Shown here piece by piece: positions 786 to 27,159 of a DNA stretch of 27,714 bases. This DNA is from a virus (Duplodnaviria > Heunggongvirae > Uroviricota > Caudoviricetes): the IMG/VR virus record IMGVR_UViG_2778261035_000014, one strand, 5' to 3'. A model generated the notes under the pieces. The model did no database searches. It worked only from the letters and a program-made list of their open reading frames with translations, and was not told the origin of the DNA. Made by a program: the position numbers and the translations under genes. Numbering within the stretch: position 1 is the first letter of the stretch; the number at the start of each line of letters is the position of its first letter.

Positions 786-832
786 TGGAGCGGGCGAAGG
801 GAATCGAAAAGGCTTGCTCTAAGCACCGGAAA
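786..832. repeat. Left att junction: 22-bp core tggagcgggcgaagggaatcga (786-807) plus 16-bp motif ctctaagcaccggaaa (817-832)
   Basis: The core is identical to 14043-14064 and the 16-mer to 13978-13993. The core's reverse complement TCGATTCCCTTCGCCCGCTCCA has a T-loop, acceptor 3' strand and CCA, matching my recollection of tRNA-Gly (glyU-type). The adjacent sequence does not fold into a full tRNA. Confidence 0.6.
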
Positions 833-2136: not shown

Positions 2137-2142
2137 AAAGTG

Positions 2143-4643: not shown

Positions 4644-4694
4644 ATTTTGTATCTCCATACAGTTTTTATAATCCGGCGAATATGCCGGGTTGAG

Positions 4695-4996: not shown

Positions 4997-5016
4997 TTAG
5001 CAACATATGTTGCTAA
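4997..5016. promoter_or_regulatory. Perfect 20-bp palindrome ttagcaacatatgttgctaa (candidate operator)
   Basis: Exact dyad symmetry, preceded by hairpin cccgtttacggg (4985-4996). Sits in the 650-nt ORF-free gap between the tape-measure-like gene and the capsid genes. Confidence 0.4.
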
Positions 5017-5313
5017 TCGCTCTACGATACTTTTCTAATACAGCCAGCGGCAATGGCCTAACCTTCCCGTGAGAGAGTGCGGATTATTGGCTGTATGAGA
5101 AAAGGCCCGCACGGTGTTCACACAGGCACTTTAAGTAAGGAGAAGGAATGACAACGGCTGTTGTACGCACATACAATTTAAATCATCACCCTATGCAATT
5201 ATTTTAACACGAATGATTATCATTTGCAACAACAAAAACAATAACATGGCGAATTTAACGGCCCTCTCTCGTGTGGGCCAATTTACTACGTCATTTTTGA
5301 CGGAACGATGATT

Positions 5314-7858: not shown

Positions 7859-8029
7859 TTTTATAGTATCTCCAGAGAAGGATGCTCCCGCCGATCAGGA
7901 CGTGACGAAGCGCCACCCAGCCCCAAGGCAGGAAAAAGATGTAATCAAGGTTCATTGGCCCCCGATGTGGGGTTGGGTCAGTGCATCGCAAGGCGATTAA
8001 CAGCAATTGCTGTTAACCCTTTCAGGGTG

Positions 8030-8608: not shown

Positions 8609-9389
8609 CTTCATCGTAGTGATATACATCCGGCCCGTTAACTTGTTGCTTTACTGGCGCTGGTTCTGTTGCGGGTATATCGTCAGGCCGCATCTGTTCT
8701 CCTGGCTCACCCATATTGGTTTTGCCTTTCAGTTTCCATACAAGTTTGATCTCATCCTGCCAGGTTGTAGCACCATGGGATTGCGCCCAGCGTCGCGCCT
8801 CTGGAACCAAATCCCCACGAGAGGTAAACGAGTTGGCGAGCCATGGTATCCCGACAACATTTTCCCCAGCTGACTCACTCAGTGATGGATCATCACTATT
8901 GGATAAATCAACATCGACAGGAATATCCACAGCAGGTACGCCGTCTGGTTTTCCAGTAACAGGCGCGGCAGATGCCACCACGAAAGATTCCACAACAGGT
9001 TTTTGCTCATTCTTACCGCTCTCCTCGGTTTCCACTTTTCTATTACTCGCCTGCGCGGAATTATGATCGTCAAGAAAAACCATCAGCGATGGATCGAGTT
9101 CGACCGGAGAAATTTTGTGTGTACTCCCCTTCACTTCCTCAAAAGTGATCATTCCAGCTTCACGAAGCTTGTTCCTGAAATTGCGAACGGCTTCGGGCTT
9201 GCAGCCGCAACGTTTACCAATCGTGCCAACAGATTCGTAATAAGTTCTGCCTGTTTTGTCATAGCTGTAAACCAGAGATAACAAAATTTTCATGTTGCCA
9301 TTAATGGTCAGGCCGTTGTACTCGGTAAGGTCGAGAACGCTGTATTCAAGTTTTACAAAATCCTTACTGTCCCGGTTCTGTTTGCTCAT
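8586..9389 (-). CDS. Replication-initiator-like protein with N-terminal winged-helix DNA-binding domain
   Basis: 267 aa with a GGAGA Shine-Dalgarno. N-terminal segment KILLSLVYSYDKTGRTYYESVGTIGKRCGCKPEAVRNFRNKLREAGMIT is typical of phage or plasmid replication initiators. Acidic Pro-rich C-terminus. Positional analogue of 21938-22603. Confidence 0.55.
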   Translation of the reverse strand: MSKQNRDSKDFVKLEYSVLDLTEYNGLTINGNMKILLSLVYSYDKTGRTYYESVGTIGKRCGCKPEAVRNFRNKLREAGMITFEEVKGSTHKISPVELDPSLMVFLDDHNSAQASNRKVETEESGKNEQKPVVESFVVASAAPVTGKPDGVPAVDIPVDVDLSNSDDPSLSESAGENVVGIPWLANSFTSRGDLVPEARRWAQSHGATTWQDEIKLVWKLKGKTNMGEPGEQMRPDDIPATEPAPVKQQVNGPDVYHYDEDDPEIPF

Positions 9390-9567
9390 TCTGTTCTCCG
9401 TAAAGTGTCGCCTTGCTGGCTAATGCTGGTTTGATGTCTGGTGTGTTGTCGAAAATGTTCGCGGCAGTCTCCAAGATTTCATTACAGAGCCGTGCCAGGG
9501 GCTTGTCCTGCCTTTTGGCCTCAGCCAGTAGAGCCTGATAAACGTGCTGTTGAAATTTGATGTTCAT
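9364..9567 (-). CDS. Ribbon-helix-helix (CopG/Arc-like) DNA-binding protein
   Basis: 67 aa. MNIKFQQHVYQALLAEAKRQDKPLARLCNEILE is clearly homologous to the element-2 small ORF MNINFDSATYNALLNRAKAEGKSIPKLVNELLI. Overlaps the rep-like gene start. Confidence 0.55.
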   Translation of the reverse strand: MNIKFQQHVYQALLAEAKRQDKPLARLCNEILETAANIFDNTPDIKPALASKATLYGEQNEQTEPGQ

Positions 9568-9655
9568 TCAAGTTGTCCTCCTCGTTCTAGGTACAAAAGA
9601 CCTCCCGCCAGTGGTCGCCCAGAAGGCGAACCGGCTCAGGTTTTGTTCAGTGTTG

Positions 9656-10102
9656 TTAGGCTGCGGTTGCTGTCGGGAATTCGCCAGCCAGTGGATAACC
9701 GTAGGCTTCAAGTTCTTCTGCACCGCTGACAGCCACAAGCAGCATAATGATCTGCTCATGAGTCAGAGAAAGACCTAGCTTATCCAGATAAAGCTGTCGA
9801 TGGCCTTCCAGGATTGGACGAAGTATATCGGTCAACTCCATTCCAGCAGCGCGTTGATTACTCAGCGGCTTAAGGATGGTTTTAAACGCTCGCGCCTGCT
9901 TCGCCTTTTTGCGCTCCTGCTTCAGAATATGCAGGCAGACGGCAATCTGAGGAAGTCGGGCATGTACAGCGTCTGCCCCGCCGTTTCTACTAATGAAGGC
10001 CCACAAGGCTGATTTGGTGTATTTGCCGTTCAGGATGAGATCAGCGATCTGCTCGCCTGTCATAGTGGTCAGGTCGAGACGTTGGGATTTTGGTTTATTC
10101 AT
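9656..10102 (-). CDS. Hypothetical protein (148 aa), first gene of the leftward operon
   Basis: ORF with a GGAGA Shine-Dalgarno; no family recognised. Confidence 0.5.
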   Translation of the reverse strand: MNKPKSQRLDLTTMTGEQIADLILNGKYTKSALWAFISRNGGADAVHARLPQIAVCLHILKQERKKAKQARAFKTILKPLSNQRAAGMELTDILRPILEGHRQLYLDKLGLSLTHEQIIMLLVAVSGAEELEAYGYPLAGEFPTATAA

Positions 10103-10850
10103 TGGGTTCTCCGTTCTGTTAAAAGAATTATTCGCGGAGGTTCTATTTGTAACCCATTTTGTATTGCCGTGAGGTTGACAAGGAATGTCGTGATGACGGC
10201 AGAATTATTCGAGGATTCATAGGTAAATCATTACCCTACTAGAATCTATTGTATCAGATTTGTCTGTAAATAGCAATCATTATCATGTAGGATTTTATAA
10301 TGCATAATAATCACCATAACACTACAAGTTTACAAAATCTTTGTCAATAGTGCCAAGCCGTTCTATAACGCGTTCTGCGGGTACTTGTCACCATAGGAGT
10401 ACATACGTATCACCACCACCGTTTAAACGCCATAGAGAGGCTTTAAGGAGGTCTGTTAGTTAACCCGCGCCGCCCCGGAGTGAACCGGACAGATGCAAAG
10501 CAGTCCTCTACGCCGTGCTCCGCTCCACATATGGCGAACAAGTTCGCAGCTTCCACACAGAGTAAGAGCGTAGCTCTATGGCGTAGCCTGCCGGGTTACC
10601 CGAGTCACAGAGCGGAGCGATGTGTTAACGAGGGTTAGAAGGTCACGAGATGGCGTGGCTGTTTCACGTCAGCGAAGGTGAGCTTCTTACCACAAACATA
10701 TCTGAAGTGGCTGACCAGCCATTGCAGAGCGGAGCGATGCAGAAGCATCACTATTAAAACTAACAGAATGACCAACCGTCATTCCGTGCTCTCGACCTGG
10801 AGGTACTTTTCTTATCAGTTCTTTTATGGGGATTGTTATTTATTATTATT

Positions 10851-10932
10851 GTGCTCGAAAATCGACTACCCCCTACTCGAAAATCGTGCAGGTAGGTGCT
10901 CGAAAATCGAGGGGGTGGGTACACGAAAATCA
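10851..10932. repeat. Iteron-like array: four ~23-bp direct repeats with core CTCGAAAATCG
   Basis: gtgctcgaaaatcg (10851), tactcgaaaatcg (10875), gtgctcgaaaatcg (10896), acacgaaaatca (10921). Spacing is 22-24 bp, about two helical turns. The spacers ctaccccct and agggggtgg are complementary. Confidence 0.55.
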
Positions 10933-12213
10933 TGCAGGTATCACCGGGTGAGAATTTTCCAAGTCATCCACGCGACCAACGCACCGATGAAAACTTCCGG
11001 TTTGATATGTCCGCGTCATGCTTCAATGGCACAATCAACGGCAACACCTGAGGCGGTCCAAACACCTGATCCGCTCCGAGAATTGATCATCTCCCTCCCC
11101 TGCTTTCATCTGAAAGTACCGACCATTCTCCGCGCTGGCTGAAGATTGGCAACCCTATACTGATTTTCTGTCAAAATTTGGTGGATGATCTTTACCATTG
11201 GCTATCTTGTAAACAAAATAGATTAAATGCACCTCAAATAGCCCATAATCCGTAGTTAATCATGCTAAAGTGGTCACTATGCGTACAAATCAGAAGTCTG
11301 AACCTATGGGCGTTATGGTGTGATGTACATAACGAAGCCTTGCCAGCACTGGAAGCGTGAAATTTGGTGGCTGGTATCTGGATCAAGCAACACTCAATTT
11401 CTGAACCTTCGCTTCAAAAAAATAATAAAACAACACACAAAACCAAAACAGATGCCCTCTGGTGGCTGCTGTATCGCGCTGTGGGATGCTGTGGATTATC
11501 GGTATGTCAGTTCACGTTTGTGTAGAGATAACGCCGCTACGGGTTTCTGGTTGAGCGTAGGAGGGATTGGTGGGTTGGCTGTTTACATTGTTGTGGGAAA
11601 TGGTACGAAACAGTGGCGGCCTGGCTCGGTGAATATCACCAGGTGATGGCAGACCTTCAGCCCGTTGTGGTAACGTCGCCGTAGTAGCCCTATGTCTGCT
11701 GCGAATAGAAAAATGTGCTTTTATGGCATTTGATGCACTGTAAACTTCAAAGGCCTGAAACCTGAAATTGTGTGGTGACCAGCCAAACTCATCCAAAATC
11801 CTTGAACAAGAGAACTCACCTCAAATCCTCCTGAATGCTTTCCTTCTGTTGGTGAAATCGCTGTTGTGTACCACGCTTCGCATCAACGCTCCGAAAAGCA
11901 ATACCTGACTATTCCAGTCAAGTACATGTAAGATACAATATGTTAAATGGCTGTACAATTAGTGAACACAGGCACTTCAAAACATCAAGTTATCTCCCTT
12001 GCCTCAGCCCAAAGCAGCATTGTGTAACTGCACTGCTTGTTGCAGTGAGGCGTGTCGCTGAAGGCATCACGTAGCGATATTTGGCGAAGAAAAGCGCTTT
12101 TCACCGAGGGCCTGGGCTGACGGTCTAGCAGATCACCAACAGAGCTGGGGATATTTTCAACAGGAGAATGTAAACTTGGAAGATAAAGAGCCGGGACACT
12201 TACGGGGCAGGTT

Positions 12214-12429
12214 GTGGAAATGAAGAAAATTTTACTATTTGTTGTGGTACTGCTGCCGCTGGCGGCTCATGCAGGAAAAATCACCATAAGCAACCCCGAC
12301 GAACAAGAATTACAGGGCGGGAAAAGGCTTTGCACTTACGAAAACAGCATTTATCTGTTTACGCTGGTGACTCGCTCGCAATCCTGCCCTTTCTCAAAAA
12401 CGTTCGATACAAATGATAATGAAAAGTGA
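12214..12429 (+). CDS. Small secreted protein with two conserved Cys (paralog of 25846-26061)
   Basis: About 70 aa with signal peptide MKKILLFVVVLLPLAAHA. Conserved blocks GKITISNPDEQ, LCTYENS.YLFT, CPFSKTFDT are shared with the element-2 paralog. Confidence 0.6.
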   Translation: MEMKKILLFVVVLLPLAAHAGKITISNPDEQELQGGKRLCTYENSIYLFTLVTRSQSCPFSKTFDTNDNEK

Positions 12430-12442
12430 AACGGAATGTCTG

Positions 12443-12931
12443 CTAATGGGGTGCTTTGCCGATCATCTCCTTAAGATCTTTGAAGCGTTCTTTGATTATT
12501 CTTCCATTCTCGGCTAAACGATTCGCTTCAAACGCAGTGAATTGAGCAATATTTTCTATTTCTTCGCGGCTGATGCTCATAAAATTCTCATCAAGCTTAG
12601 AGAGCATATTTGTGACACCTTGTCTACTTTGTGTAAAGAAACCAAGGTTATCTCTGACACCCTTAAGAAGTTCTTTCTTACCATAAGGGTTCATATTTGT
12701 ACTCGTTTCTATAGACTTGATAAGCTCTTCCGTGTCACTACATATTCCACGGTAAACCAGTTCGACCTCACGAAGCTCTTTCACTGTATCAATTTTCATT
12801 TTCCTTAATGAATCATGCTCAGCATTTTTTCTTGATCGATAGGTGTTATACAGAGCAGTTATACTGACAACAAGTGCAATGAAAGAGAATAGAGCGCTAA
12901 AAAAAGGCAGCAATTCTTTTGACATTTTCAC
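12443..12931 (-). CDS. Membrane-anchored coiled-coil protein (cargo, unknown function)
   Basis: 162 aa with a GGAG Shine-Dalgarno. N-terminal TM helix LLPFFSALFSFIALVVSITALY, then a charged helical domain. Low GC. Confidence 0.6.
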   Translation of the reverse strand: MKMSKELLPFFSALFSFIALVVSITALYNTYRSRKNAEHDSLRKMKIDTVKELREVELVYRGICSDTEELIKSIETSTNMNPYGKKELLKGVRDNLGFFTQSRQGVTNMLSKLDENFMSISREEIENIAQFTAFEANRLAENGRIIKERFKDLKEMIGKAPH

Positions 12932-12953
12932 TCCAAATTTATTAGTCTAGAAG

Positions 12954-13652
12954 TTAACTTCTAAATTTTTGAAAACAACGTCGATCAATCTCTTGTGCCA
13001 ATCTAGTCCGCATCTCTCCATAGCTTAATCTTTCCATATCTGAGGCTATTTTCCAACCACAACCTTTGAAATTACATTTAATAATAGGAAATGGGACATA
13101 GTTATAGAGATCAACGCTGGAGTGTTGGCTAAGAAGGCCTCCACATTTAGGGCATCTCATGTGAAGATTTATTAAAGAGTACCCACTATCACCTAATGCT
13201 TTAGTCCATTCCCAAGAAACTATCATTTCATAAATATTATCCGAAGTATAATGCAAAAAACTGCCCTCTTGTCCTGTAGCTTTCGCTGCAATACGACGGC
13301 GCATTACAAATCCAACAGTAGGTAAAATTGCCAATAATAAAATCGATAAAATGAGGAGCATCCATAAGGGCATTGTGACTGGGAAGGTAAGGATGTCCAT
13401 TAACCAATGGAAGAACTGCTTAATGTAATTCCATAGCCACACAACGACGGCGATCCCACTTCCTCCAGTGACAAGTGCAACGATAACGCCCGATATGCTG
13501 TCTTTGCTAAGGTCTTTCAACCATGCCATAGAAATTCTTCTTATTAAGCTATTCTTTATGCTCAATTTTACAGCGAACCAGATTTTAGGCAATAGGAGCC
13601 ATAAAGCGCCGTGATGGGTACATCCATCGATCAGCGCCTTCAGGCGTGTCAT
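12954..13652 (-). CDS. Membrane protein with C-terminal 4-Cys zinc ribbon (cargo, unknown function)
   Basis: Up to 232 aa; the start may instead be the internal ATG at 13529. Two or three hydrophobic helices, then CPKC-(x25)-CNFKGC. Sits 22 nt upstream of the 162-aa gene, so probably an operon. Confidence 0.55.
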   Translation of the reverse strand: MTRLKALIDGCTHHGALWLLLPKIWFAVKLSIKNSLIRRISMAWLKDLSKDSISGVIVALVTGGSGIAVVVWLWNYIKQFFHWLMDILTFPVTMPLWMLLILSILLLAILPTVGFVMRRRIAAKATGQEGSFLHYTSDNIYEMIVSWEWTKALGDSGYSLINLHMRCPKCGGLLSQHSSVDLYNYVPFPIIKCNFKGCGWKIASDMERLSYGEMRTRLAQEIDRRCFQKFRS

Positions 13653-13977
13653 CAGATTTTCAGCGGTAACGATCAGTGAGTCAGGTGTGCATTTTCGTAT
13701 ACACGAAACGGGGTAGAGCCTGCCGCTTTCCCGGACAGGTTAGTAATCCCATCATATCGCCTGTTTATCCCGCGCTAAGGTCGTCGTAAGCGCCGCTGTT
13801 TCAGGAATGGTTTATAGCCATAGTGAAAGGCTTTGTTTTCTTGTTGGACTATCGCGGTAAGACACTGGAACGACCGCCAGCGTTTTGATAAGCTTCCTGA
13901 TCACTACTCACCAAATCGCGGTAGTTACCAAGGTAGAACGTCGAGAGGGTTCTCAACAGCGCTTACAGAGCGCCTCC

Positions 13978-14064
13978 CTCTAAGCACCGGAAACATAAAG
14001 ATTTTTTAGCTGATTTTAAGCGTAAAAAATCGCTGGAGCGGGCGAAGGGAATCGAGGAAACCCA
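13978..14064. repeat. Inter-element att junction: 16-bp motif (13978-13993) and 22-bp core (14043-14064)
   Basis: Same two motifs as at 786-832 but in the opposite order and with 49 nt between them. Confidence 0.6.
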
Positions 14065-15468: not shown

Positions 15469-17310
15469 TTAACTTGGTGCTTGCCCAGACAGAGCCGCCA
15501 ACGTGAAACTACGTTCAAAATCTTGTTGGATACTTCCCACTTTGTAATCGAGGTATGATCCAAGCTGACTACCATCAGGGGCGATATTCACATCCACCTT
15601 GCTTTCCGGCACGTTTACGACGATGTTCGGTGCATACGTCATAGATGGGGTAGTGTTCAGATCACGGCTAACGTTCTGTTTCAGGGATTGCACGTTATCA
15701 GATGGGCTTGCATAGTTCTGAATTGCAGTTCCGCCAGTCGTTGGCTTGTCTTCCGTGCCAGGAATAGGATCTAAGCCTAAAGCACTACGACCCCAATCAA
15801 CCATACCACCTACAAACGAGTCCTTATAATACATACCGGACGAATCAAGGTTTTCATGCTTGTTCTCTGGGTTGATATTTTGGTATGCAGCAGTAAGCCA
15901 CGATACAGCACCAGCAAAGGCGCTCATCATTTCAGCCGTTGAGCTTCCAAGTTCTTTAAACAGAGGATTCAAATCTTTCAACATTTGCGCCCACTCTTCA
16001 CCAGCTTGAGCATCGAACTCTTCACCAAATCCAGTCATGATAGCTTTCTTACTACCTTCCCATGCCATATTCATATTTGCCTGTACCGCTTGCAGACGTT
16101 CGGCAGCGTCCAGATCCGCTTGTGTATAGGTGGCATTGGCCTTTTGCATCTTAACGATGGTCTTGTTTAGCTCTTCACCATTACGACTAAAGGCACCACG
16201 GAAATATTGCAAATCATTGCCCAGGTCTTCAAGGATGTGCCCGATTTCTTGATCTGATAATCCACGGCGTTCACCTTCTTTCACTACAGCGCCCAGGAAA
16301 CCTAAAGGATCAGTCTGGAAACCTTTAACCTGTTCAGGTGACCAGCCATATTTATTAAGGATGTTATCGACGGCACCATTACCGCCAGCCCAGCGACCTT
16401 TCTTAGCGTCCCATTTGGTATTCCCTACGGATTCACCTAAACGTTCCTGAACGTCTTTAAGGTTGTCTTGACGTTGGTCTACGGAACTATCAACACCGTG
16501 TTCTAAGCCGTACTGGTTGAGAGCTAACAGGGCGTTAGTGTTTACGTTGACAGCCTTTGCCTTGCGGTTAGTGTCTGTGATCTTGCTTGCCTGATCGGTT
16601 ACGGTATTGAATATCGCAGCACCGCCGAAAGTAGCAGCAGTGAGAGCGGCACCGCCTACCATTGCACCGACACCAGCGCCCATATGACCACCTTTAAGCT
16701 GTTTAGCCATATGTGGGTATTTACCGCCATCAGCCGCCACCTGGCGAGCTTTTACAGCAGCCGCACGGCGTTCTAACGTGATACGATCACGGATCAGGTG
16801 ATTCATCTTAGCCTGACTTATAGCGCCTTTCTCATACGCTGCCGTTTGTGCTTTGATGTATTGCAATGTTTTGTAGTACTGGGCGCTGTTCATACCGTCG
16901 CCCATACGCCCTTTTTTGATGCCTTCAAGCTGGCGGAAAGCTTGCTGGCGTTTAATCTCTGCCTTCTCTGCTATTGTCGCTTTAGCGCGGATCTGTTTAT
17001 CGGCAGCTATAGCGGCTTTAGCCTTCGCTTTAGCTTCTGCCTTTGCCACCTTATCAGCGTTCTTCTTGTCTGTTTGAGCTTGCTTGTCTGACGCTTTAAC
17101 ATCAGCTTTAGCCTGTGCAGCTTTACGAGCCTTTACCAGATCATGAGCATCGTCTATAGCTTTTTTAGCCTTCTTCCCTTTCAATGTTGGATTGGTCAGG
17201 TTTTCCATTTCTTTTTGAAATTTCTTCCCTGCATCGCGTGCTTTCTGCAATGATGCAAAATCAACTTTAAATACAACCTTGTTTGTTAAGGTTGAGATGT
17301 TTAAATCCAT
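15469..17310 (-). CDS. Long coiled-coil protein with glycine-rich hydrophobic segment (tape-measure-like, function unresolved)
   Basis: 613 aa with an AAGGA Shine-Dalgarno. TolA-like KAKAEAKAKAKAAIAADKQIRAK helix, then GGHMGAGVGAMVGGAALTAATFGGAAIF. Lies downstream of the capsid and HTH genes, unlike element 1. Confidence 0.6.
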   Translation of the reverse strand: MDLNISTLTNKVVFKVDFASLQKARDAGKKFQKEMENLTNPTLKGKKAKKAIDDAHDLVKARKAAQAKADVKASDKQAQTDKKNADKVAKAEAKAKAKAAIAADKQIRAKATIAEKAEIKRQQAFRQLEGIKKGRMGDGMNSAQYYKTLQYIKAQTAAYEKGAISQAKMNHLIRDRITLERRAAAVKARQVAADGGKYPHMAKQLKGGHMGAGVGAMVGGAALTAATFGGAAIFNTVTDQASKITDTNRKAKAVNVNTNALLALNQYGLEHGVDSSVDQRQDNLKDVQERLGESVGNTKWDAKKGRWAGGNGAVDNILNKYGWSPEQVKGFQTDPLGFLGAVVKEGERRGLSDQEIGHILEDLGNDLQYFRGAFSRNGEELNKTIVKMQKANATYTQADLDAAERLQAVQANMNMAWEGSKKAIMTGFGEEFDAQAGEEWAQMLKDLNPLFKELGSSTAEMMSAFAGAVSWLTAAYQNINPENKHENLDSSGMYYKDSFVGGMVDWGRSALGLDPIPGTEDKPTTGGTAIQNYASPSDNVQSLKQNVSRDLNTTPSMTYAPNIVVNVPESKVDVNIAPDGSQLGSYLDYKVGSIQQDFERSFTLAALSGQAPS

Positions 17311-17328: not shown

Positions 17329-17544
17329 TTATTTATTCTGTTTTGATACGTAATATTGCACTGCTTCCATAGCGGAACAGCCTGTAGCAAAAATTCTTTG
17401 ACGTACAGCGGTATTAGAGATCCCTAAAAACTTACATACTTGTGAGATATTTAGAATATCTTCCGGTAAGGTGGAAACAGCTTTCAGGATTTCAACGGGA
17501 TTGTTATTTTGTGTGTTCATGGTTTTCTCACTTTTATTCGACAT
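17329..17544 (-). CDS. Small helix-turn-helix DNA-binding protein
   Basis: 63-71 aa. HTH-like ILNISQVCKFLGISNTAVRQRI. C-terminus homologous to the 2938-3150 product. Confidence 0.55.
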   Translation of the reverse strand: MSNKSEKTMNTQNNNPVEILKAVSTLPEDILNISQVCKFLGISNTAVRQRIFATGCSAMEAVQYYVSKQNK

Positions 17545-17664
17545 TAGAAAACAAAAAGGGCAAAGAGATCCGTTACTGTATTTGCTTTACAGGTTAGTTA
17601 ATCCCTTTTGCCCTTATTGCCTGTTTTATTTCCAGTCGCACAGGAAACGACTATTAACGCTTTA

Positions 17665-18693
17665 TTACGCTACTGTGATCTGTACAGTGAAGCCTACGCC
17701 GTGGTTTACAACCATCTGGCTATTCTCGGTAACTACGTTTACAGCGTCGTTACGTGCTGGGCTAAATGCATAGCTGTAATATTCAGCCGATCCAGAGTTC
17801 AGAAGGTCGAACGTTGAAGAAGGAGCGCCGAAAATGTTCTGATAGACGTTAGAGCCTTTAGCGAACTTCGGAACAGCCACCGCATCAGAAGTCATATGAG
17901 CCAGCAGCAGCGGATCGGTAACTTTGATCAGATCAATGTTAGTGCCTGGAATAGTGAAGGTAGTCACACCTGGCAGCAGGGAGCGCACACTATAAACGAT
18001 GTTTGCGTCATCGGTAGGGCTTGCATACTGGAACGCGTTAACCATGCCAGCACTGTAACGGATAGCGTTAAATGCAGCAGGTTTACAGAATACAACGATA
18101 CGCTCTACAGCAGCCGCCTGGCTTTGTGCTTTAGTAATAACGTCTGTATGCATCTGATCGAATTGCTGGAACACCATAGAAGGCGTGGTGCTTGATGCGT
18201 CGATGGTTGCAGTCAGCGGAACAGCACTAAACAGATCGCCCCACTGAATCAGCACATCGTCAGTTTTAGGGGTGTAGGTGCGACCACTAAACAGGGAAGC
18301 AGCCAGTACGCTTTCTTTAGTACGCTGGAAAGCAATGTGGTGCTTAGCAACATATTCCGCGTAGATATCTGTCAGAGTCTCTTCAACGGTAGCGCCTGGT
18401 TTACGTTTGCCTTGAACGTCTTGCGGCTTAATCATATCTTCACGCAGGAAGTAGGGGATCTCTACTAAAAATTCTTTACCCTGTTCACGTTTAGTCACGT
18501 TATGTTCAGAAGAGAAACGAGAGGTTTCTTTGTTGAACAGAGATTCGTTAGTTTCCACCAGTTGGCTAACAGCCACTTTATGAGAACTCACACCTACCGG
18601 ATCAGTGAAGTCCAGAGTAGTTAACAGGAAGTTGCGAGAGTCGTGCAGACTAAACAGCGGAGCCAGATCGACGGATTCATTACCAATAATCAT
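17665..18693 (-). CDS. Major capsid protein, lambda gpE-like (second copy)
   Basis: 342 aa with an AAGGA Shine-Dalgarno. Paralogous to the 3264-4280 product and preceded by the small partner gene. Confidence 0.7.
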   Translation of the reverse strand: MIIGNESVDLAPLFSLHDSRNFLLTTLDFTDPVGVSSHKVAVSQLVETNESLFNKETSRFSSEHNVTKREQGKEFLVEIPYFLREDMIKPQDVQGKRKPGATVEETLTDIYAEYVAKHHIAFQRTKESVLAASLFSGRTYTPKTDDVLIQWGDLFSAVPLTATIDASSTTPSMVFQQFDQMHTDVITKAQSQAAAVERIVVFCKPAAFNAIRYSAGMVNAFQYASPTDDANIVYSVRSLLPGVTTFTIPGTNIDLIKVTDPLLLAHMTSDAVAVPKFAKGSNVYQNIFGAPSSTFDLLNSGSAEYYSYAFSPARNDAVNVVTENSQMVVNHGVGFTVQITVA

Positions 18694-18711
18694 TATGTTT
18701 ATTCCTTTATA

Positions 18712-19083
18712 TTAAGATGTGAATACAGTGTTAAAACCAGCCATCTGGAAGCCTTTAGCAGCCAGAGCAGCAATAGCGGCTTCTTTAATAGCGCCTTCAA
18801 CATTCAGAGCATCAGACTTGATGCAAACCAGTCCGGCATTGCTACGCAGCACGTTAACGGTTTTAGCGTCGCCAGCGGATACCGCATCAGACACAACCAC
18901 AAGAACATCGCCGCCGCTTACATATTCAGCGCCGTTACTGGTAATCAGATCGCCGCATTCCACATCAACCGCCAGATCAACGGTAAAAGATTGCACACAA
19001 CCGAACTCATCAGTTGCATAGCTCACGATATCGGTAAATGATTTGCGAACTGGAAACAGATCGCTCATATTAATAATAGCCAT
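18712..19083 (-). CDS. Putative head decoration protein (gpD-like by size and synteny)
   Basis: 123 aa, 18 nt upstream of the capsid gene. Positional and size analogue of 4299-4643. Confidence 0.45.
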   Translation of the reverse strand: MAIINMSDLFPVRKSFTDIVSYATDEFGCVQSFTVDLAVDVECGDLITSNGAEYVSGGDVLVVVSDAVSAGDAKTVNVLRSNAGLVCIKSDALNVEGAIKEAAIAALAAKGFQMAGFNTVFTS

Positions 19084-19085
19084 AA

Positions 19086-19301
19086 TTAATAGTTTCCTTT
19101 TTTGGATTGTTTGATTTGTTCTGCTTTTGCTTTAATCAGATCCTGCATAGTAGGCTTCTGTTCATCAGCAGACTTAAAAAGCTTATCACAATGTTTTTTC
19201 AATTCTGTTGGAGTGATCCCCAACATATAAGCCGTAGCATTGAATGTTTCATCAGTGATAATCAATTCTTCGTTACCATTCTTTAGAATGAGATTTTGCA
19301 T
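19086..19301 (-). CDS. Hypothetical small protein (71 aa) leading the capsid operon
   Basis: ORF ending 2 nt before the decoration-like gene. Lys/Glu-rich. No counterpart in element 1. Confidence 0.45.
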   Translation of the reverse strand: MQNLILKNGNEELIITDETFNATAYMLGITPTELKKHCDKLFKSADEQKPTMQDLIKAKAEQIKQSKKGNY

Positions 19302-19330
19302 TGTTGCTTTACCTTTTCTAACATTCTTGT

Positions 19331-19361
19331 TTAGTGCTGATAAAATAAAACCGGAAGGGGA
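19331..19361 (-). terminator. Intrinsic terminator upstream of the capsid operon
   Basis: 7-bp stem ccggaag/cttccgg (19341-19347 / 19355-19361), followed on the minus strand by TTTTATTTTA. Confidence 0.55.
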
Positions 19362-20175
19362 AAACTTCCGGCTTTATGAATACAACATTTTGAAGGATGC
19401 GATAGAAGTGTTACTAAATCGTAGTTATATGCACTTAAAGAGGATAGGACATATAAGAATAAGATTGCTTATTGTTATATACCCTTGAGGGGTGAATAAC
19501 AGGCTTACAGGGAGTAGGCGCTTAGGAGGTCGCCCCCTTTGGAGAGGAATCTATAAACCTGTTATTCGTGCGATGGCTAATCGCTGTCGTCACAATGTGG
19601 ATGCATCGATCAGACGTTCAGGAATCACCTATTAACTTTCAAACCTTTTTGGATTCTCGTTTTAATAGGAGTGGTGCCGAGATGATTTCGGGGATCATCC
19701 ACGCTTTCGCGTTCTAAGATTGGCACCTTAATAAACACCAACAAACAAAAAACGTATTCAGCTTTAGGCTTAGTAGAATTGCTGTTAAGAAACAGATATA
19801 CACCGTTATTTGTTTATACGGGGTTTATAGACACTGTAAACAGTGTTTTTAGAAAGTGTTTCATGCTTCACAGTTGGTTAAAAAGATGAGGGGCCAAGTC
19901 CATAGCCCCTGCATTCTTAAGACACAATTTTGATAAAGCAATAAGGAAAATAAAATGAAACTATTAACGAGGGAAACAATTTCTAAAAATCACTGTAAAG
20001 GGAAAGCGAGGTAGGTTAGATAGGGCGCGACCCCTTGAGGTCTACCCCGCTTTCGTGTAGGATTAAAATCTGGAGAAGGATTAACGCCAGCTAACACCTG
20101 TTTTAGATTATTTCCTCTACATTTCTTATTATATAACATTTCTGTTATAAAGTCAATAGTTAAATCAAAGTTTTT

Positions 20176-20388
20176 TCAATTCTTTTCGGTTGTTAACTGC
20201 CACTCACCAAATACGCAATTACCATCTAAAACAATTGTTTGTTCGTTACCGTTATCATCGGTTACGTGCATAAGGCGGGTGTAAGTGTCGAGTAAGCCAG
20301 TATACACTTTACCTACTGTGAAACATTGGCACGCTTTACCTTCTTCTGTAAGTGCCAGTAAACGGGCACGTTTGGTTTTTACTGTCAT
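20176..20388 (-). CDS. Hypothetical small protein (70 aa)
   Basis: ORF overlapping the upstream gene by 4 nt in a tightly packed operon. Confidence 0.5.
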   Translation of the reverse strand: MTVKTKRARLLALTEEGKACQCFTVGKVYTGLLDTYTRLMHVTDDNGNEQTIVLDGNCVFGEWQLTTEKN

Positions 20389-20693
20389 TGGTTAACCTTA
20401 TCGATTAGTTCTGCTATGAGTGGTTGCAAATCTGCTACCGCTTCTTGCATGATTTCTGTGGTGTCGTTGATGACGATGATCAGATTAGAAAGGTCGTCGG
20501 CTTCAATCATTGCACCTTCTGATTGATCACAAGCTTCAATAAGCAATTGCAGTGCTTCCCGCGTCGATTCCAGATTAATAACCGCCTGTGTAATGGTTAG
20601 CTCGCTTGGAAAGGTCAGAGCCGCGTTCACTGCTTTCTGTAAATCAATAACCAGATCCATCATTTGAATAGTTACGGTGTGAACTTCGCTCAT
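20385..20693 (-). CDS. Small highly acidic protein (102 aa)
   Basis: About 18 Asp/Glu against 3 Lys/Arg. Start overlaps the upstream stop. Confidence 0.5.
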   Translation of the reverse strand: MSEVHTVTIQMMDLVIDLQKAVNAALTFPSELTITQAVINLESTREALQLLIEACDQSEGAMIEADDLSNLIIVINDTTEIMQEAVADLQPLIAELIDKVNQ

Positions 20694-20914
20694 TATGCCA
20701 CTTCCTCTAATTGTTCTAATTGTTGTTGTGCTTCACGTGCTTTCTTCATAGCAATAGTGAGCGGGATTTTATAAGTTGCAATGTTGTCTATAATATCATC
20801 GAGTAAACCGAGATCGTTTTCTTCCTGTGCACATTCAATCAGGCTTATGAAACATTCAGAAAGAAGCTTAAGATCATGAAAAGTGGTTGTCTCTAAAATT
20901 GCTTTGTTAATCAT
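20693..20914 (-). CDS. Small acidic protein (73 aa)
   Basis: ORF in the same operon with an acidic composition. Confidence 0.5.
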   Translation of the reverse strand: MINKAILETTTFHDLKLLSECFISLIECAQEENDLGLLDDIIDNIATYKIPLTIAMKKAREAQQQLEQLEEVA

Positions 20915-20955
20915 TTTATTTTCCTTTTGTTAAGGGTTATATTCAGCAAACGCTG

Positions 20956-21336
20956 TTAATCGTCGATTTTTATTGCACTGAGCAGAAGTAATTCTGTCTC
21001 TGTCACACCTGCATATTTCAGACTGTTAAGAGCCATGTAGCCACGAAAATGATTCATATCCTGGAAGCCTAAACACTGCCATCTTTTAAGAAGACTACTA
21101 TCAATGATTGTTGTTTTACGTGGGCGCGGATTGAAGTAAACACCATCCATACTTTGAATGATTGATAATTCTTCGTCTGTCAATTCTGGGCTTGGTTCTT
21201 CAAGTATAAAGATCAATTCCTCGCCTGGTTGTGCATCATGCTCATAATTATATTTGCGAGGATTGTTTAACGCATACTGATCACATGCTTCGCCAATAGT
21301 TGTTATTACGTTTTTCTTGCCTTTTTTCTTGCTCAT
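20956..21336 (-). CDS. Hypothetical protein (126 aa)
   Basis: ORF with a Lys-rich N-terminus MSKKKGKK. Confidence 0.5.
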   Translation of the reverse strand: MSKKKGKKNVITTIGEACDQYALNNPRKYNYEHDAQPGEELIFILEEPSPELTDEELSIIQSMDGVYFNPRPRKTTIIDSSLLKRWQCLGFQDMNHFRGYMALNSLKYAGVTETELLLLSAIKIDD

Positions 21337-21464
21337 TGCTTCCCCTTCGTTTTGTTTTTCTTGTTGCAGTGTTAAAAAAGGAAGCGATCATAAATACTAA
21401 GAAAAATATTAAGCTTTCCATTGTTTCACCCTTCAAGATGTTTGATAGTTGTTTGTTGTTTGTT

Positions 21465-21683
21465 TTAAGCTACAGAGTCGATTCTGAATGCTTTCATATG
21501 AGTTTTTGTATACTGCAATAATCCTTGTTTACTTAGGTTATCGAGAAGAGCATATAAAAATTGCTCACCTACCACACCGGAAAACTCAGAATCAAACAGA
21601 ATCATTCCCGTTCTTTCCCGTAAATATTGCAGAAAGATTTCTTGTGAAAATTCGCCATCGAATATGATCACAGTGTCATCCAC
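21465..21683 (-). CDS. Hypothetical small protein (72 aa)
   Basis: ORF overlapping the upstream gene by 16 nt. Confidence 0.45.
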   Translation of the reverse strand: MDDTVIIFDGEFSQEIFLQYLRERTGMILFDSEFSGVVGEQFLYALLDNLSKQGLLQYTKTHMKAFRIDSVA

Positions 21684-21925
21684 AATTCAAACGGGTTTAC
21701 CTCGAGCAAACGGAACGTCTGACTATTCACAGCTTCATACTGAATTACCCCAAAATGGCTTAGGTGATTTAGCCAATGCTGTGTGTGTTCTTTACTGTGC
21801 GGTAACTCCTGAAAGCTGATAATCGCGGGTAGCTCATAATTGCTATCAGCGATCTGTTTTGCCAGTGTGTAGCCGCTTTCTGTAATTTCGAATGTTCGTT
21901 TGTTTAATGTCAGGTTGTATTTCAT
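21668..21925 (-). CDS. Hypothetical small protein (85 aa)
   Basis: ORF immediately downstream of the rep-like gene. Confidence 0.45.
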   Translation of the reverse strand: MKYNLTLNKRTFEITESGYTLAKQIADSNYELPAIISFQELPHSKEHTQHWLNHLSHFGVIQYEAVNSQTFRLLEVNPFELWMTL

Positions 21926-21937
21926 TTTTTATTCTCC

Positions 21938-22603
21938 TTAAAATGGTATTGAGTCATAGATTTCACTTTCTTTTCTCAGGGCTATCATCAGTGCATTAAA
22001 AGCATCATCTTCAAGAATTATCCTCTTCGAGGTCAGTGCACGTTTTATAAAATTTTCTGTTTCTTCTTGCATAGGCTTTTGGCTGTCTATGGAAATAAGC
22101 CATGTAAAAAGATCAGATTGTTCCGTGATTTCTGCCTGTGTTTCCTGCTCAATAGAGTGTGTCGCTTCTAACGGTTCCTGTGTTTCAGGTGCAGGCTGTT
22201 CTACGTTTACAGAGGTTTTTACGTCTTCCGGTGGTGTGATGTGTGCATCTGTAAATGGTAATGCTTTATAGAGTGATGTTTGCCCGTCCCGTGCCTCTAC
22301 AGAAAGAACACCCATATCAATAAACATATTTATAATATTACGCACCTGACGATCACTAACCATTCCAATATTAGCTAATGTTTTTTGATTGGCGTAACAT
22401 TCTTGCCCTTGTTCATTGAACCCAGCTACGTAACTGTAGATTTCAACGGCTGGAAGTGTCGCGGTGTATTCCTTACCTGACGGTGAGAACCACTTTTTAA
22501 ACATCTTCAGCCATTGTTCAACTACTACATATGTTTGTTTACTATCTTTCTTATTGAGGCATTGCGCTTTTGCTTCGGCAATTGTTTTGGTGTTTTGGTT
22601 CAT
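21938..22603 (-). CDS. Replication-initiator-like or winged-helix DNA-binding protein
   Basis: 221 aa. Segment ECYANQKTLANIGMVSDRQVRNIINMFIDMGVLSV. Acidic C-terminal half. AAGGAGG Shine-Dalgarno lies inside the upstream ribbon-helix-helix ORF. Confidence 0.5.
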   Translation of the reverse strand: MNQNTKTIAEAKAQCLNKKDSKQTYVVVEQWLKMFKKWFSPSGKEYTATLPAVEIYSYVAGFNEQGQECYANQKTLANIGMVSDRQVRNIINMFIDMGVLSVEARDGQTSLYKALPFTDAHITPPEDVKTSVNVEQPAPETQEPLEATHSIEQETQAEITEQSDLFTWLISIDSQKPMQEETENFIKRALTSKRIILEDDAFNALMIALRKESEIYDSIPF

Positions 22604-22727
22604 TTAGTTCCTCCTTTGTAAGGACTGTAATTAGTAATTCATTAACAAGTTTTGGAATTGATTTCCCTTCTGCCTTTGCACGATTTAACAACGCGTTATA
22701 AGTTGCAGAATCAAAATTAATATTCAT
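22551..22727 (-). CDS. Ribbon-helix-helix DNA-binding protein (58 aa, absent from the ORF track)
   Basis: Hand-translated: MNINFDSATYNALLNRAKAEGKSIPKLVNELLITVLTKEELNEPKHQNNCRSKSAMPQ. GGAGAA Shine-Dalgarno. Homologous to the 9364-9567 product. Overlaps the rep-like start in another frame. Confidence 0.5.
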   Translation of the reverse strand: MNINFDSATYNALLNRAKAEGKSIPKLVNELLITVLTKEELNEPKHQNNCRSKSAMPQ

Positions 22728-23917: not shown

Positions 23918-23969
23918 GTAGGAACTCATTTCCTGGGTAGGTAGGAACTCATTTCCTGGGTAGGTAGGG
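23918..23969. repeat. Tandem direct repeat, 2.3 copies of 23-bp unit gtaggaactcatttcctgggtag
   Basis: Exact copies at 23918-23940 and 23941-23963, then a partial copy; preceded by duplicated agtttaatt. Confidence 0.7.
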
Positions 23970-25172: not shown

Positions 25173-25273
25173 ATTTAGTGCTCTCAACCATAAAACGTAT
25201 CGTGCAACATATTGAAAATGATCGTTTTATGATCAAAACTACTTTCATTGAAACGAATAAGGAGAGTATAAAG

Positions 25274-25852
25274 ATGAAAGGTATTAGCCAAGCCCTCAAG
25301 AATGTAGACGAGGTAAAAACAGTAGCAGCAGAGCTACAGCGCAATAGTAAAACCAACCTGTTTTATTGCTTATGGGTGTTTATGTATGAAAGCGGGTTGC
25401 GTGTCTCTGACGTACTCAAGCTAAAATATCAGGATGTTGAGGGGCAATCTCATTTGAAGATAAAGCAGGAGAAAACCGGAAACGTAGTAAGGCCAAAAGT
25501 TACCCCCGCCATGTTGTCAGTGGTGGCACAACGCAAGGCAGAGCAAACGAAGATGCCTGTAGCTACAGATTTTATTTTCAGTGCTGGCACATTACGCAGT
25601 AAAGGCGAAGCCGTAACCCGTAACACGGTATTCACTGAATTTGGGAAAATGGGACGTAGAGCCGGATTCTCTAATGTGGGATGCCATACGCCACGTAAAA
25701 GTCGGGGCCGTGTGATGTTTGATGCAGGGGTAGCTATAGAGACAATAGCCCATTTCCTGGGACAGACAGATCCGCGCTCTACTATGTATTACATCGGGTA
25801 TGGTCAGGATGTGCAGGACGATTTAGCAGAGGAGTTTTCTTTAGAATGGTGA
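25274..25852 (+). CDS. Small tyrosine recombinase, FimB/FimE-like (catalytic domain only, 192 aa)
   Basis: AAGGAG Shine-Dalgarno 9 nt upstream. Motifs ESGLRVSDV (Arg), HTPRKSRG (His-x-x-Arg), and C-terminal LGQTDPRSTMYY (Tyr). Size and motif spacing resemble my recollection of FimB. Stop overlaps the next start in ATGGTGA. Confidence 0.65.
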   Translation: MKGISQALKNVDEVKTVAAELQRNSKTNLFYCLWVFMYESGLRVSDVLKLKYQDVEGQSHLKIKQEKTGNVVRPKVTPAMLSVVAQRKAEQTKMPVATDFIFSAGTLRSKGEAVTRNTVFTEFGKMGRRAGFSNVGCHTPRKSRGRVMFDAGVAIETIAHFLGQTDPRSTMYYIGYGQDVQDDLAEEFSLEW

Positions 25853-26061
25853 TCCAAATTAAAAGCTTATTTGTGCTGACGTTGGCGCTATTGCCTGTCC
25901 TATCGAATGCCGGACAGATAACAATGGTCAACCCACAGGAAGAACAGACGGAGAATGGAAAAACGCTGTGCACGTATCAGAACAGCAATTATCTGTTCAC
26001 TTACGTAACTAAGGGGAAATGCCCTTATACAAAAACATTTGACACTTCCGCCAAAGAATAA
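25846..26061 (+). CDS. Small secreted protein with two conserved Cys (paralog of 12214-12429)
   Basis: 71 aa with signal peptide MVIQIKSLFVLTLALLPVLSNA. Conserved blocks GQITMVNPQEE, LCTYQNSNYLFT, CPYTKTFDT. Confidence 0.6.
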   Translation: MVIQIKSLFVLTLALLPVLSNAGQITMVNPQEEQTENGKTLCTYQNSNYLFTYVTKGKCPYTKTFDTSAKE

Positions 26062-26066
26062 CGATT

Positions 26067-26486
26067 TTAACGGGATTTTGGATAAATGCTGTTTCTGCAA
26101 TTAATGCAATACCAACTCGCGGAGTATTGACCAACGGCACGCGAAAAAACCATGTGTGTTTGCACCTTATCAACTTCAAAGCATTTGGGACAGTAGGCTG
26201 TTTCATCGCCTTCTTTCCAGTAAAGTCCATCTTTGAAAGTGAAGGTGTGCTTATCCTTTAGCTGATCTTCAAGCTGCTTATTTTTCTGTTCAGCCTCAAA
26301 AAGAAGTGCTTGGGTTGTGATTACTTCCATCTTCACACTTGCAAGTTCGCTCATGAGGTTAGCAAGCTCAAGTTTAAGCGTTGCTTTATCAAGTTCGCCG
26401 CCATCATCAGCGAGCTTCTTTGCAATACCTACAGCTTTGTCAATGATACCTACAGCCGCCGCTGTACTTGCCAACACTCCAGACAT
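26067..26486 (-). CDS. Coiled-coil protein with C-terminal zinc ribbon (cargo, unknown function)
   Basis: 139 aa. Central heptad-like region, then CPKC-(x24)-CINC. Last gene of the leftward three-gene operon. Confidence 0.55.
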   Translation of the reverse strand: MSGVLASTAAAVGIIDKAVGIAKKLADDGGELDKATLKLELANLMSELASVKMEVITTQALLFEAEQKNKQLEDQLKDKHTFTFKDGLYWKEGDETAYCPKCFEVDKVQTHMVFSRAVGQYSASWYCINCRNSIYPKSR

Positions 26487-26508
26487 ATTGCCCCTAATTT
26501 TAACAAGT

Positions 26509-27144
26509 TCACTTTATAAAAGCTAAAGCCCTAAGAACGGTTTTTAACCGCGTTACCTGCTCAGGCTTTTCAAGTTCATCCAAATTAACATTAATTTTAT
26601 CTAAACAGATGGCTATACGTGACATAACCTCGCCATGAATCTGCTTCAAACCTTCGCCATATTGAGTGGCAATATGGTAAGTCTGTTCTAAATTAAAACG
26701 ATGGATATCTTTCTGCGTTTCATGAAATATGGTTTGAAGTTTAGCTAAGTCCTCTAAAACCTGATTATTCATTCTGAAAGTATCAACCAGACTCCTTGCT
26801 GAGCCATAACAAATAACAATTGCCTTCATTGTCTCTTCATTAACAGAAGTTAATGCGAAAGAGTTGCTTTCATAGAATGAGAAATAATTTTGAGTCAACG
26901 GAAAGATGCTTTCAAAAGGTTTACCACCTTCATAATTTTCAAGAGAATCGTAAATTCTGGCTTTATAAAGTTCCAGAAGCGTTTCGACTTCTGCTTTTAT
27001 TCCAATCAAGACACTCTTTTGCTTATCCTTTGCTTCATTAAATGAAGCTCTGTCTTGCCTACGTCCATCGATCAGAGTACCCCACAGGGTGAACAATCCC
27101 CCTATCAAGGCACCAACTAAACCAGAAATCAGTTCACTTCCCAT
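26509..27144 (-). CDS. Membrane-anchored protein (cargo, unknown function)
   Basis: About 211 aa from the ATG at 27144 (ORF-track start is TTG at 27159). N-terminal TM helix ELISGLVGALIGGLFTLWGTLI. Begins 16 nt after the upstream stop. Confidence 0.55.
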   Translation of the reverse strand: MGSELISGLVGALIGGLFTLWGTLIDGRRQDRASFNEAKDKQKSVLIGIKAEVETLLELYKARIYDSLENYEGGKPFESIFPLTQNYFSFYESNSFALTSVNEETMKAIVICYGSARSLVDTFRMNNQVLEDLAKLQTIFHETQKDIHRFNLEQTYHIATQYGEGLKQIHGEVMSRIAICLDKINVNLDELEKPEQVTRLKTVLRALAFIK

Positions 27145-27159
27145 GTTGCCCCCTAACAA

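Follow-up and report, generated by a model that had tools for sequence, protein, structure and literature searches.

P4, an ~11-kb island at a tRNA gene, encodes the capsid decoration and stabilization protein Psu and has late genes that are activated by its helper phage. In PLE11 of Vibrio cholerae, the satellite's own tape-measure protein (TMP), chaperone and hub protein replace those of the helper ICP1 in chimeric tails, and the authors of that study noted tmp genes in other satellites (PMC12987554). The EPIP satellites of Mycolicibacterium are reported to encode a major capsid protein (MCP), a TMP, a helix-turn-helix (HTH) protein and an integrase, and to have small capsids and an altered tail length (preprint, PMC12822802). 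The cf-PICIs (Alqurainy et al. 2023, as summarized by de Sousa et al. 2023, PMC10085698) carry protease, portal, adaptor/connector, TerS, TerL, AlpA and pri-rep genes, and the cf-PICI detection model given there lists tail genes as "forbidden". Here we describe positions 17329-19301 of a 27,714-nt stretch of Escherichia coli chromosome (the window), which lies between the ETT2/GH15 region and tRNA-Gly. In our best reading, these positions hold the head module of element 2 (E2), a satellite-like island of ~11 kb that integrates and replicates itself and is inserted at the 3' end of tRNA-Gly beside a second island, element 1 (E1).

On the minus strand of E2 a 71-aa gene is followed by the genes for a decoration protein, an MCP, a small HTH protein and a TMP homologue, and then by a convergent integrase gene. 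The PLEs parasitize a virulent myovirus of ~125 kb (PMC12987554; PMC10945586), and the own-TMP tail logic of PLE11 is what we propose here for the island TMP, with or without Dit. Both E1 and E2 have a TMP homologue and two relatives (L002 and L014) have TMP-Dit pairs, whose incorporation into helper tails is predicted, and the identities of PLE proteins to those of the helper (20% for the TMP, 41% for BhuB) resemble those of the islands (~30% for the TMP, 57% for Dit). Unlike the islands, PLEs encode no MCP, and the coat protein of their helper is remodeled by the scaffold TcaP. An Rta-like anti-helper protein, as in PLE11, was not identified in the islands, PLE proteins not having been compared by sequence. 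By analogy, PLE11 is the closest experimentally established counterpart for the proposed tail part.

The EPIPs reportedly have the same combination of MCP, TMP, HTH protein and integrase as the islands. They differ in having TerS, a scaffold, head-tail adaptors, a serine integrase, an actinobacterial host and a temperate helper. With the cf-PICIs, the likeness is that of a small integrative island with its own MCP that would rely on a helper for the rest of the virion. The islands, however, have only decoration and MCP genes, an O-like replication initiator (Rep) and a TMP, without portal or terminase; a protease is present only in Aeromonas members, and the MCP is of the lambda-E/phi92 type with a gpD-fold partner. 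PHROG scans of the E1 and E2 open reading frames (ORFs) gave no match to AlpA or a primase. P4 is likewise an ~11-kb tRNA-integrated island with a capsid decoration-type protein, but it has neither MCP nor TMP, it replicates by means of the alpha primase-helicase, and its Sid, Psu and Delta proteins are unrelated to those of the islands; none of the P4 families (Psu-Delta-Sid, alpha primase, epsilon) had a PHROG or Pfam match in any ORF. When tested for membership, the family falls outside the cf-PICIs, the PICIs and P4. Judged by gene content, it is best classified as a phage satellite with a coat and decoration core and an exchangeable TMP cassette. As the PICI and cf-PICI models of SatelliteFinder both forbid tail genes, both would reject the family, which is probably under-counted.

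The decoration and capsid genes of the island family

A 22-bp exact repeat, for which the chance expectation is none, has copies at 786 and 14034 of the window and forms the tRNA-Gly 3' end in E. coli SCU-102. We therefore interpret E1 (786-14033) and E2 (14034 onwards) as tandem insertions at one attachment (att) site; the tRNA-Gly gene itself is beyond the window. A search of 5426 complete E. coli genomes found E2-like elements with a query coverage of at least 80% in 52. Ten of these genomes, of unrelated sources (seawater, chicken, human, sheep and pig), contained E1 with 100% identity over 10.7 kb, and in E. coli RM10740 (L111) E1 adjoins a different E2 allele. The presence of identical E1 copies beside differing E2 alleles argues for recent horizontal movement.

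The E2 MCP scored 41 bits against the Pfam family Phage_cap_E (threshold 22.9 bits), the MCPs of E1 and E2 both matched phrog_29, and a family profile made from both MCP types matched the solved phi92 gp124 over its full length (E 2.6e-31). Based on these matches, the head module can be assigned to the lambda-E/phi92 type, with an MCP of the Phage_cap_E family. The identity of the decoration protein was weakly supported by sequence alone. An AlphaFold (AF2) model of the E2 protein, made from 26 homologues and having a predicted local distance difference test (pLDDT) score of 85, matched the capsid decoration proteins of Bas63, Sf14 and PhiTE in Foldseek with a probability of 1.0 and TM scores of 0.55-0.60, and also matched phage 21 SHP and lambda gpD. 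The model supports the 123-aa protein being a gpD/SHP-fold decoration protein that adjoins the MCP. For the small HTH protein, weak and generic HTH matches were the only ones obtained, with no assignment to Xis, TerS or a regulator class.

A sequence-only reading of the window had presented E1 and E2 as close relatives that keep the decoration, capsid and HTH genes among rearranged neighbors, with a 71-aa gene first and a TMP-like gene after the HTH gene in E2, and with the TMP-like gene upstream across a gap in E1. The ORF coordinates agree with both layouts, and the labels of tape measure and decoration protein are backed by PHROG and phage TMP matches and by the gpD fold, respectively. Pairwise protein alignments, which that reading had proposed as a check, confirmed that the three genes are common to both elements while their neighbors differ, and that the paired proteins are related, though distant. 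The identities between E1 and E2 were 23% for the MCP (E 1e-11), 33% over 78 aa for the decoration protein (E 2e-7), 31% for the HTH protein (E 6e-6) and 24% for the TMP (E 3e-6, 36.6 bits, with homology over ~400 aa). The integrases were the closest pair of the compared proteins (60%, E 2e-174). With structural proteins that are 23-33% identical and that fall into different deep clades for both MCP and decoration protein, the two elements are not close relatives; the nearest relatives of E1 are Klebsiella elements, with MCP identities of 84-96%. They represent deeply separated lineages within a single family of integrase/Rep islands of 11-13 kb.

To survey related genomes, which had also been proposed, we combined the neighborhoods of MCP homologues with an integrase-anchored scan of one genome per species, and annotated the loci by iterated hidden Markov models. 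Approximately 25 related loci in several arrangements were obtained, from Escherichia, Klebsiella, Citrobacter, Enterobacter, Kluyvera, Kosakonia, Pantoea, Phytobacter, Scandinavium, Biostraticola and Aeromonas. The decoration and MCP genes were present and adjacent in every locus and were usually followed by a small HTH gene, which bears out the expectation that different arrangements would define a minimal conserved unit. In type A (E2, L002, L014, L004, L013b, L016, L018 and L029) the TMP gene is downstream of the HTH gene; in type B (E1, L008/L009, L025 and the Aeromonas loci L011/L012) it is upstream across a non-coding stretch; in type C (L028 and L010b) it is on the opposite strand; and L007, L010a, L022 and L030 have none. 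Family members are repeatedly found as pairs, in tandem or next to each other, in Citrobacter sp. NCU1 (L013/L018), Klebsiella (L009), Pantoea cypripedii (L010) and E. coli RM10740.

The ratio of nonsynonymous to synonymous substitution rates (dN/dS) was 0.04-0.05 for the E1 MCP, and 0.14 and 0.16 for the E2 MCP and decoration protein; because dS was saturated, these values (0.04-0.16 overall, indicating purifying selection) are approximate. The decoration family comprised 73 clusters (50% identity) among 1.84 billion representative proteins, and the named members in the best 120 matches were all called "hypothetical protein". The trees of MCP and decoration protein (neighbor-joining (NJ), midpoint-rooted, with two phage sequences per protein) were congruent, with the island proteins separate from those of phages ESCO5 and FBKp34. 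The decoration-MCP pair is the stable core of the family and is under purifying selection.

These results also bear on whether the islands could be decaying prophage remnants that have no present function. Phage-like genes beside a tRNA and an integrase gene, with many ORFs annotated as hypothetical, are what such remnants would look like. We consider this very improbable, since the related phages are virulent and had no integrase gene in those of their regions that were inspected, a six-frame search found no pseudogenes left over from further structural genes, and loci of the same compact organization are conserved in Enterobacterales and in Aeromonas, with MCP and decoration genes under purifying selection, intact att sites and E1 copies that are 100% identical between strains. 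Encapsulin and gene-transfer-agent readings were set aside, the module being located on an integrase/Rep island and having a gpD-fold protein and a TMP as partners.

The modules of the family are mosaic at several levels. The integrase type is decoupled from the structural module in L003, whose MCP is 77% identical to that of E2 and whose integrase is just 35% identical. Conversely, L017, L019, L020 and L021 have integrases 66-68% identical to that of E2 without a homologue of the MCP, decoration protein or TMP, so this integrase family serves other cargo too. The Aeromonas veronii loci L011/L012 (6586-11023) have a fuller head set, consisting of a TMP, a gap, an XkdF-type protease, a protein of 98 aa that shares a motif with the N-terminus of the phage scaffold, the decoration protein and the MCP, and in these loci the integrase gene lies at the opposite side of the element.

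Tape-measure genes and their phage relatives

The E2 TMP was 30-32% identical over its C-terminal 380 aa to proteins in 134 phage records, nearly all of Phapecoctavirus or other Stephanstirmvirinae, scoring 171-196 bits against Phapecoctavirus TMPs and matching the ESCO5 TMP with an E of 1.7e-55. The E1 TMP instead matched that of FBKp34, a Klebsiella phage of the Stephanstirmvirinae (26-27% identity, 108-125 bits, E 1.2e-32). Together with the profile match in Table 1, the phage matches support the E2 613-aa protein being a tape-measure homologue, for which a role as length ruler is predicted.

Comparison of otherwise close elements showed that the TMP changes independently of the core. Between E2 and L002 the MCP was 77% and the decoration protein 65% identical, versus 29% for the TMP, 27% for the HTH protein and 28% for the 71-aa leader protein. 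Between E1 and L008 the identities were 86% for the MCP, 90% for the decoration protein and 87% for the HTH protein, versus 29% for the TMP, which was similar only in its N-terminal 166 aa (41%). Phage TMPs nest among island TMPs in the corresponding NJ tree (again with two phage sequences), and the arrangement of the locus tracks the deep MCP clades. The TMP is better described as a separately evolving cassette that has been exchanged repeatedly with phages and has a lineage-typical placement. In some members the cassette has companions. A small gene may be present upstream, a Dit-like protein may be encoded, and the Aeromonas loci have a prohead protease with a mini-scaffold. A Dit-like gene follows the TMP gene in L002, L014 and L023 (Dit_like, E 3e-29), the first two being of type A; E1 and E2 themselves have no Dit.

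The sequence-only reading had ascribed the two layouts to module shuffling between close relatives. Under true shuffling, a single ancestral TMP would have been translocated within the element, and the arrangements would be simple permutations. The TMPs of E1 and E2 are indeed detectably homologous over ~400 aa, the integrases are 60% identical and use a common att site, and a 39-nt repeat flanking the E1 block of TMP, gap, decoration and MCP could be a recombination scar. We nonetheless think true shuffling rather unlikely. The TMP of each element resembles that of a different phage far more than it resembles that of the other element, TMPs have been replaced in place between otherwise close elements, the arrangement follows deep MCP clades and not recent events, and some lineages have no TMP at all. 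Based on the separate phage affinities and the in-place replacement, we therefore interpret the difference between E1 and E2 as lineage-specific placement of an exchangeable tail cassette. One ancient translocation of the TMP, followed by allele replacement, may have occurred.

The copies of the 39-nt direct repeat in E1 are at 3174-3212 and 7651-7689 and are 87% identical. The first is just upstream of the ribosome-binding site of the HTH gene, and the second is within the 127-aa gene that precedes the TMP gene, where it accounts for 18 additional residues in comparison with the Kluyvera homologue (L025). The repeat may have been left by recombination, or it may form a small hairpin with a regulatory role. 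As to the start of the E1 TMP, the alignment with the E2 protein begins at an internal ATG (7485), so the protein is probably 723 aa in length.

Probable partner phages, leaders and a proposed satellite lifestyle

Several independent genes point to the Stephanstirmvirinae (phAPEC8/phi92), virulent myoviruses of ~140-150 kb, as the probable partners of the islands. Apart from the TMP matches, the E2 MCP had 24-26% identity to Phapecoctavirus MCPs, and the E2 70-aa gene product had 41% identity to a phAPEC8 hypothetical protein, with 71 phage records matched, nearly all of Phapecoctavirus. The Dit of L002 was 57% identical to the Dit-like gene product encoded after the ESCO5 TMP, and the Aeromonas protease was 53% identical to ESCO5 gp256. 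Type-A loci are colinear with the phage order of decoration, MCP, TMP and Dit genes, and the modules of phi92, phAPEC8, ESCO5 and FBKp34 have, in addition to this gene order, homologues of the MCP, TMP, Dit, protease and scaffold N-terminus. The phages differ in that they are virulent, have genomes of ~140-150 kb and encode complete sets of virion proteins; identities between island and phage proteins are 24-57%, and the island MCPs and decoration proteins form their own clades.

Two public annotations in ESCO5 (L093) bear on these comparisons. The "DNA methyltransferase" at 5544-6023, between portal and scaffold, has 53% identity to a Peptidase_S78_2 protease and for that reason is probably the prohead protease, its annotation appearing to be wrong. 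The "tail fiber protein" at 16014-16715, after the TMP, matches Dit_like (E 9e-27) and also looks misannotated.

The gap that the sequence-only reading noted in E1 is present, at 655 nt, but it is not empty. It has a sigma70-like promoter site (5229-5201) and terminator-like hairpins at 5127-5105, 4774-4756 and ~4723-4699, the last being ~40 nt before the decoration ATG. The final ~190 nt (4846-4659) are a leader block with 90-95% conservation among relatives, and two hairpins carry compensatory changes. A six-frame search with 40 phage structural proteins detected no decayed structural gene in the gap. The E2 leader has a near-consensus promoter (20156-20128, 11/12 positions) and hairpins at 19910-19889 and ~19377-19345 (folding free energy, dG, -16.8; z -5.3), and gave no DNA match in phages. 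A hairpin followed by a run of T residues was found 22-170 nt upstream of the first head gene in 16 of 19 family members, in unrelated sequences, so that a terminator appears to gate the head module, which may be expressed through antitermination or from a helper-specific promoter. The TMP gene is outside the putatively gated unit in E1 and inside it in E2.

A separate feature of the E1 leader is a 40-nt double hairpin at 4985-5024 (palindrome 4997-5016), consisting of TTAGCAAC-ATAT-GTTGCTAA plus CCCGTAAACGGG. It has 92.5% identity (E 2e-6) to an intergenic site in two Salmonella phages of the genus Seunavirus (Vequintavirinae). Among the loci fetched it was present only in E1 and its 95% relative L107, and it is operator-like.

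We favor, with a confidence slightly above even, the reading that the E1/E2 family are phage satellites that would form their own capsid shell and place their own TMP into helper tails. Consistent with this, the islands are integrative elements with att repeats and their own recombinase, and PHROG and Pfam scans of all ORFs showed that a complete virion, packaging and lysis gene set is absent. The six-frame search, with 40 structural proteins of ESCO5 and FBKp34, matched only the MCP and TMP in E1 and E2 and detected no remnants of genes for the portal, terminase, scaffold, sheath or tube, and no lysis genes were found in the PHROG scans. In the proposed cycle, infection of the cell by a phAPEC8/phi92-type phage would be followed by excision of the island and its replication from an iteron origin, after which transcription would pass the leader terminators. 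The island coat and decoration proteins would then form a small capsid, with portal, scaffold, protease and terminase given by the helper, and the island TMP, together with Dit if present, would replace that of the helper in otherwise helper-built tails, as in Vibrio PLE11. More tentatively, and at somewhat less than even probability, we suggest that these are widespread satellites of virulent Stephanstirmvirinae coliphages and Klebsiella phages that contribute only a shell and a helper-matched TMP, so that head and tail would both be chimeric, and that the TMP is recaptured from current helpers in an arms race.

Several points weigh against a satellite lifestyle. The MCP identity of just 24-26% to the proposed helpers is similar to that with Pseudomonas phages, and the fit of the island shell with the helper portal and scaffold is therefore presumed. 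Satellite TMPs (596-723 aa) have no systematic length difference from phage TMPs (647-662 aa), and neither a packaging gene nor a pac/cos site was identified in the islands. Helper-dependent induction, packaging and transfer are likewise presumed, with indirect evidence from the identical E1 copies in 10 unrelated E. coli genomes and from the gene affinities to one phage subfamily, and the IMG/VR matches are prophage-style predictions from genomes and not virome particles. The trees had few phage sequences and the dN/dS values are approximate, as given above. Lastly, a literature search that included RefSeq accessions found no paper describing the family, its coverage being incomplete and a description elsewhere possible.

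The high divergence of these structural genes from those of one virulent phage group, and the failure to find packaging genes in E1 and E2, would also be compatible with an assembly-interference (defence) island, in which the diverged structural proteins (MCP, decoration protein and TMP) would serve as dominant-negative decoys that disturb head or tail assembly of infecting Stephanstirmvirinae and shield the bacterial population, with no packaging of the island. Known defences do hit tail assembly or the TMP, such as Tab (PMC10884400), Tai (PMC11364771) and Rta of PLE11. We judge this explanation to be quite unlikely, as a decoy needs no co-evolving, full-length decoration-MCP pair kept under purifying selection in more than 10 genera, PADLOC returned nothing meaningful for the TMP, MCP, decoration and cargo ORFs, and the identical E1 in unrelated strains and the tandem arrays indicate efficient horizontal transfer. 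Interference would be compatible with the satellite model, and the two need not be exclusive, given that known satellites also interfere with their helpers.

If the satellite reading is correct, the islands would be the first known satellites of phAPEC8/phi92-type large virulent enterobacterial phages, which are often isolated for phage therapy and biocontrol. They could cut phage yield, transfer chromosomal DNA among E. coli, Klebsiella and related bacteria, and account for strain-specific resistance. Their strategy would lie between that of PICIs, which steal everything, and that of cf-PICIs, which make a whole head, by supplying only a coat, a cement protein and a tail ruler, and the chimeric-tail principle of PLE11 would extend to Enterobacterales.

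Feature coordinates and further observations

The features of both islands are compiled in Table 1.

Table 1. Coordinates in the window of the features of E1 and E2.
Feature	Position	Strand	Evidence or remark
E2 71-aa leader gene	19301-19086	-	divergent family of small proteins encoded just before the decoration gene in type-A elements
E2 decoration protein, gpD fold (predicted), 123 aa	19083-18712	-	AF2 model and Foldseek
E2 MCP, 342 aa	18693-17665	-	Phage_cap_E, E 1.7e-10
E2 small HTH protein, 71 aa	17544-17329	-	31% identity to E1 HTH protein
E2 TMP homologue, 613 aa	17310-15469	-	phrog_16051 (tape measure), E 6e-67
E2 non-coding leader, 874 nt	19302..20175	-	upstream of 71-aa gene; promoter and two terminator-like hairpins
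E2 70-aa gene	20176..20388	-	phrog_27862, E 3e-13; homologues almost only in Phapecoctavirus
E2 tyrosine integrase, 406 aa	14141..15361	+	convergent with the head and TMP genes of E2
E2 replication initiator, O-like, 221 aa	21938..22603	-	PHROG scan
E2 perfect 2 x 23-nt tandem repeat	23918..23963		candidate iterons
E1 127-aa gene before TMP	7858-7475	-	kept upstream of TMP in type-B relatives
E1 TMP homologue	ORF 7659 (TTG)-5314; probable start ATG 7485, 723 aa	-	phrog_5255 and phrog_36805, ~E 1e-10
E1 gap, described earlier as 650 nt, actually 655 nt	5313-4659	-	non-coding leader of head module
E1 gpD-like decoration protein, 119 aa	4658-4299	-	HDPD E 3.3e-4, below threshold; same family as E2 protein
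E1 MCP, 338 aa	4280-3264	-	Phage_cap_E E 3.7e-4, 20.1 bits, below Pfam threshold; phrog_29 E 5.7e-10
E1 small HTH protein	ORF 3195-2938; probable start ATG 3150, ~70 aa	-	31% identity to E2 HTH protein
E1 tyrosine integrase, 404 aa	901..2115	+	60% identity to E2 integrase; integrase HMM match
E1 replication initiator, O-like/DnaD-like, 267 aa	8586..9389	-	PHROG replication-initiator families, E 9e-6 to 1e-4
E1 iteron-like tandem repeats, ~4 x 23 nt	10851..10940		candidate origin
att repeat of E1	786..807		TGGAGCGGGCGAAGGGAATCGA; tRNA-Gly 3' end
att repeat at E1/E2 border	14034..14055		exact copy of the repeat at 786; match to SCU-102 (single-element strain) begins here

The 71-aa leader protein of E2 belongs to a family of 66-93 aa whose genes are directly before the decoration gene in all type-A relatives. 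Its central stretch is HTH-like and can be aligned with the family of the HTH protein encoded downstream (E 1.2e-4), and the AF2 model (pLDDT 70) gave no match in a fold search. Homology to the 127-aa gene product of E1 was unsupported (hhalign E 0.43). A role as a CpmB-like mini-scaffold was also rejected, the resemblance to the ESCO5 scaffold being confined to 15 C-terminal residues (E 0.077) and the HTH alignment being better. The 127-aa gene of E1 holds the position of the tail-assembly chaperone in phages. Identification of its group (127-aa/TE211) as that chaperone was discarded, there being no similarity to the ESCO5 chaperone; some members of the group have a motif in common with the phage scaffold N-terminus.

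Two RefSeq names in RM10740 were unsupported by our analyses, "chemotaxis protein" for the E1 TMP (20529-22697) and "ACP S-malonyltransferase" for the leader gene of the E2 variant (34318-34515).

The iteron-like repeats of E1 and E2 are in large non-coding regions past the Rep genes and are candidate replication origins. An NCBIfam scan gave integrase as its sole type of match, and an Rfam scan of the window returned zero families at gathering score. Near the tRNA-proximal end is a 224-aa ORF with an integrase domain of another type (25178-25852), and similar ORFs of ~200 aa are in the same place in the Klebsiella loci L004 and L009. The distal cargo of E1 (12214-13652) and the region past E2 (25846-27159) have in common a 71-aa secreted-looking protein (47% identity) and another related ORF. 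Between the integrase and HTH genes of E1 there are further cargo genes at 2143-2448 and 2664-2912. The 101-aa cargo protein of E1 has 70% identity to the product of a gene in a variable locus of P2-EC53 and phage R18C (phrog_1090), and the 82-aa cargo protein has internal repeats and matches phrog_5079.

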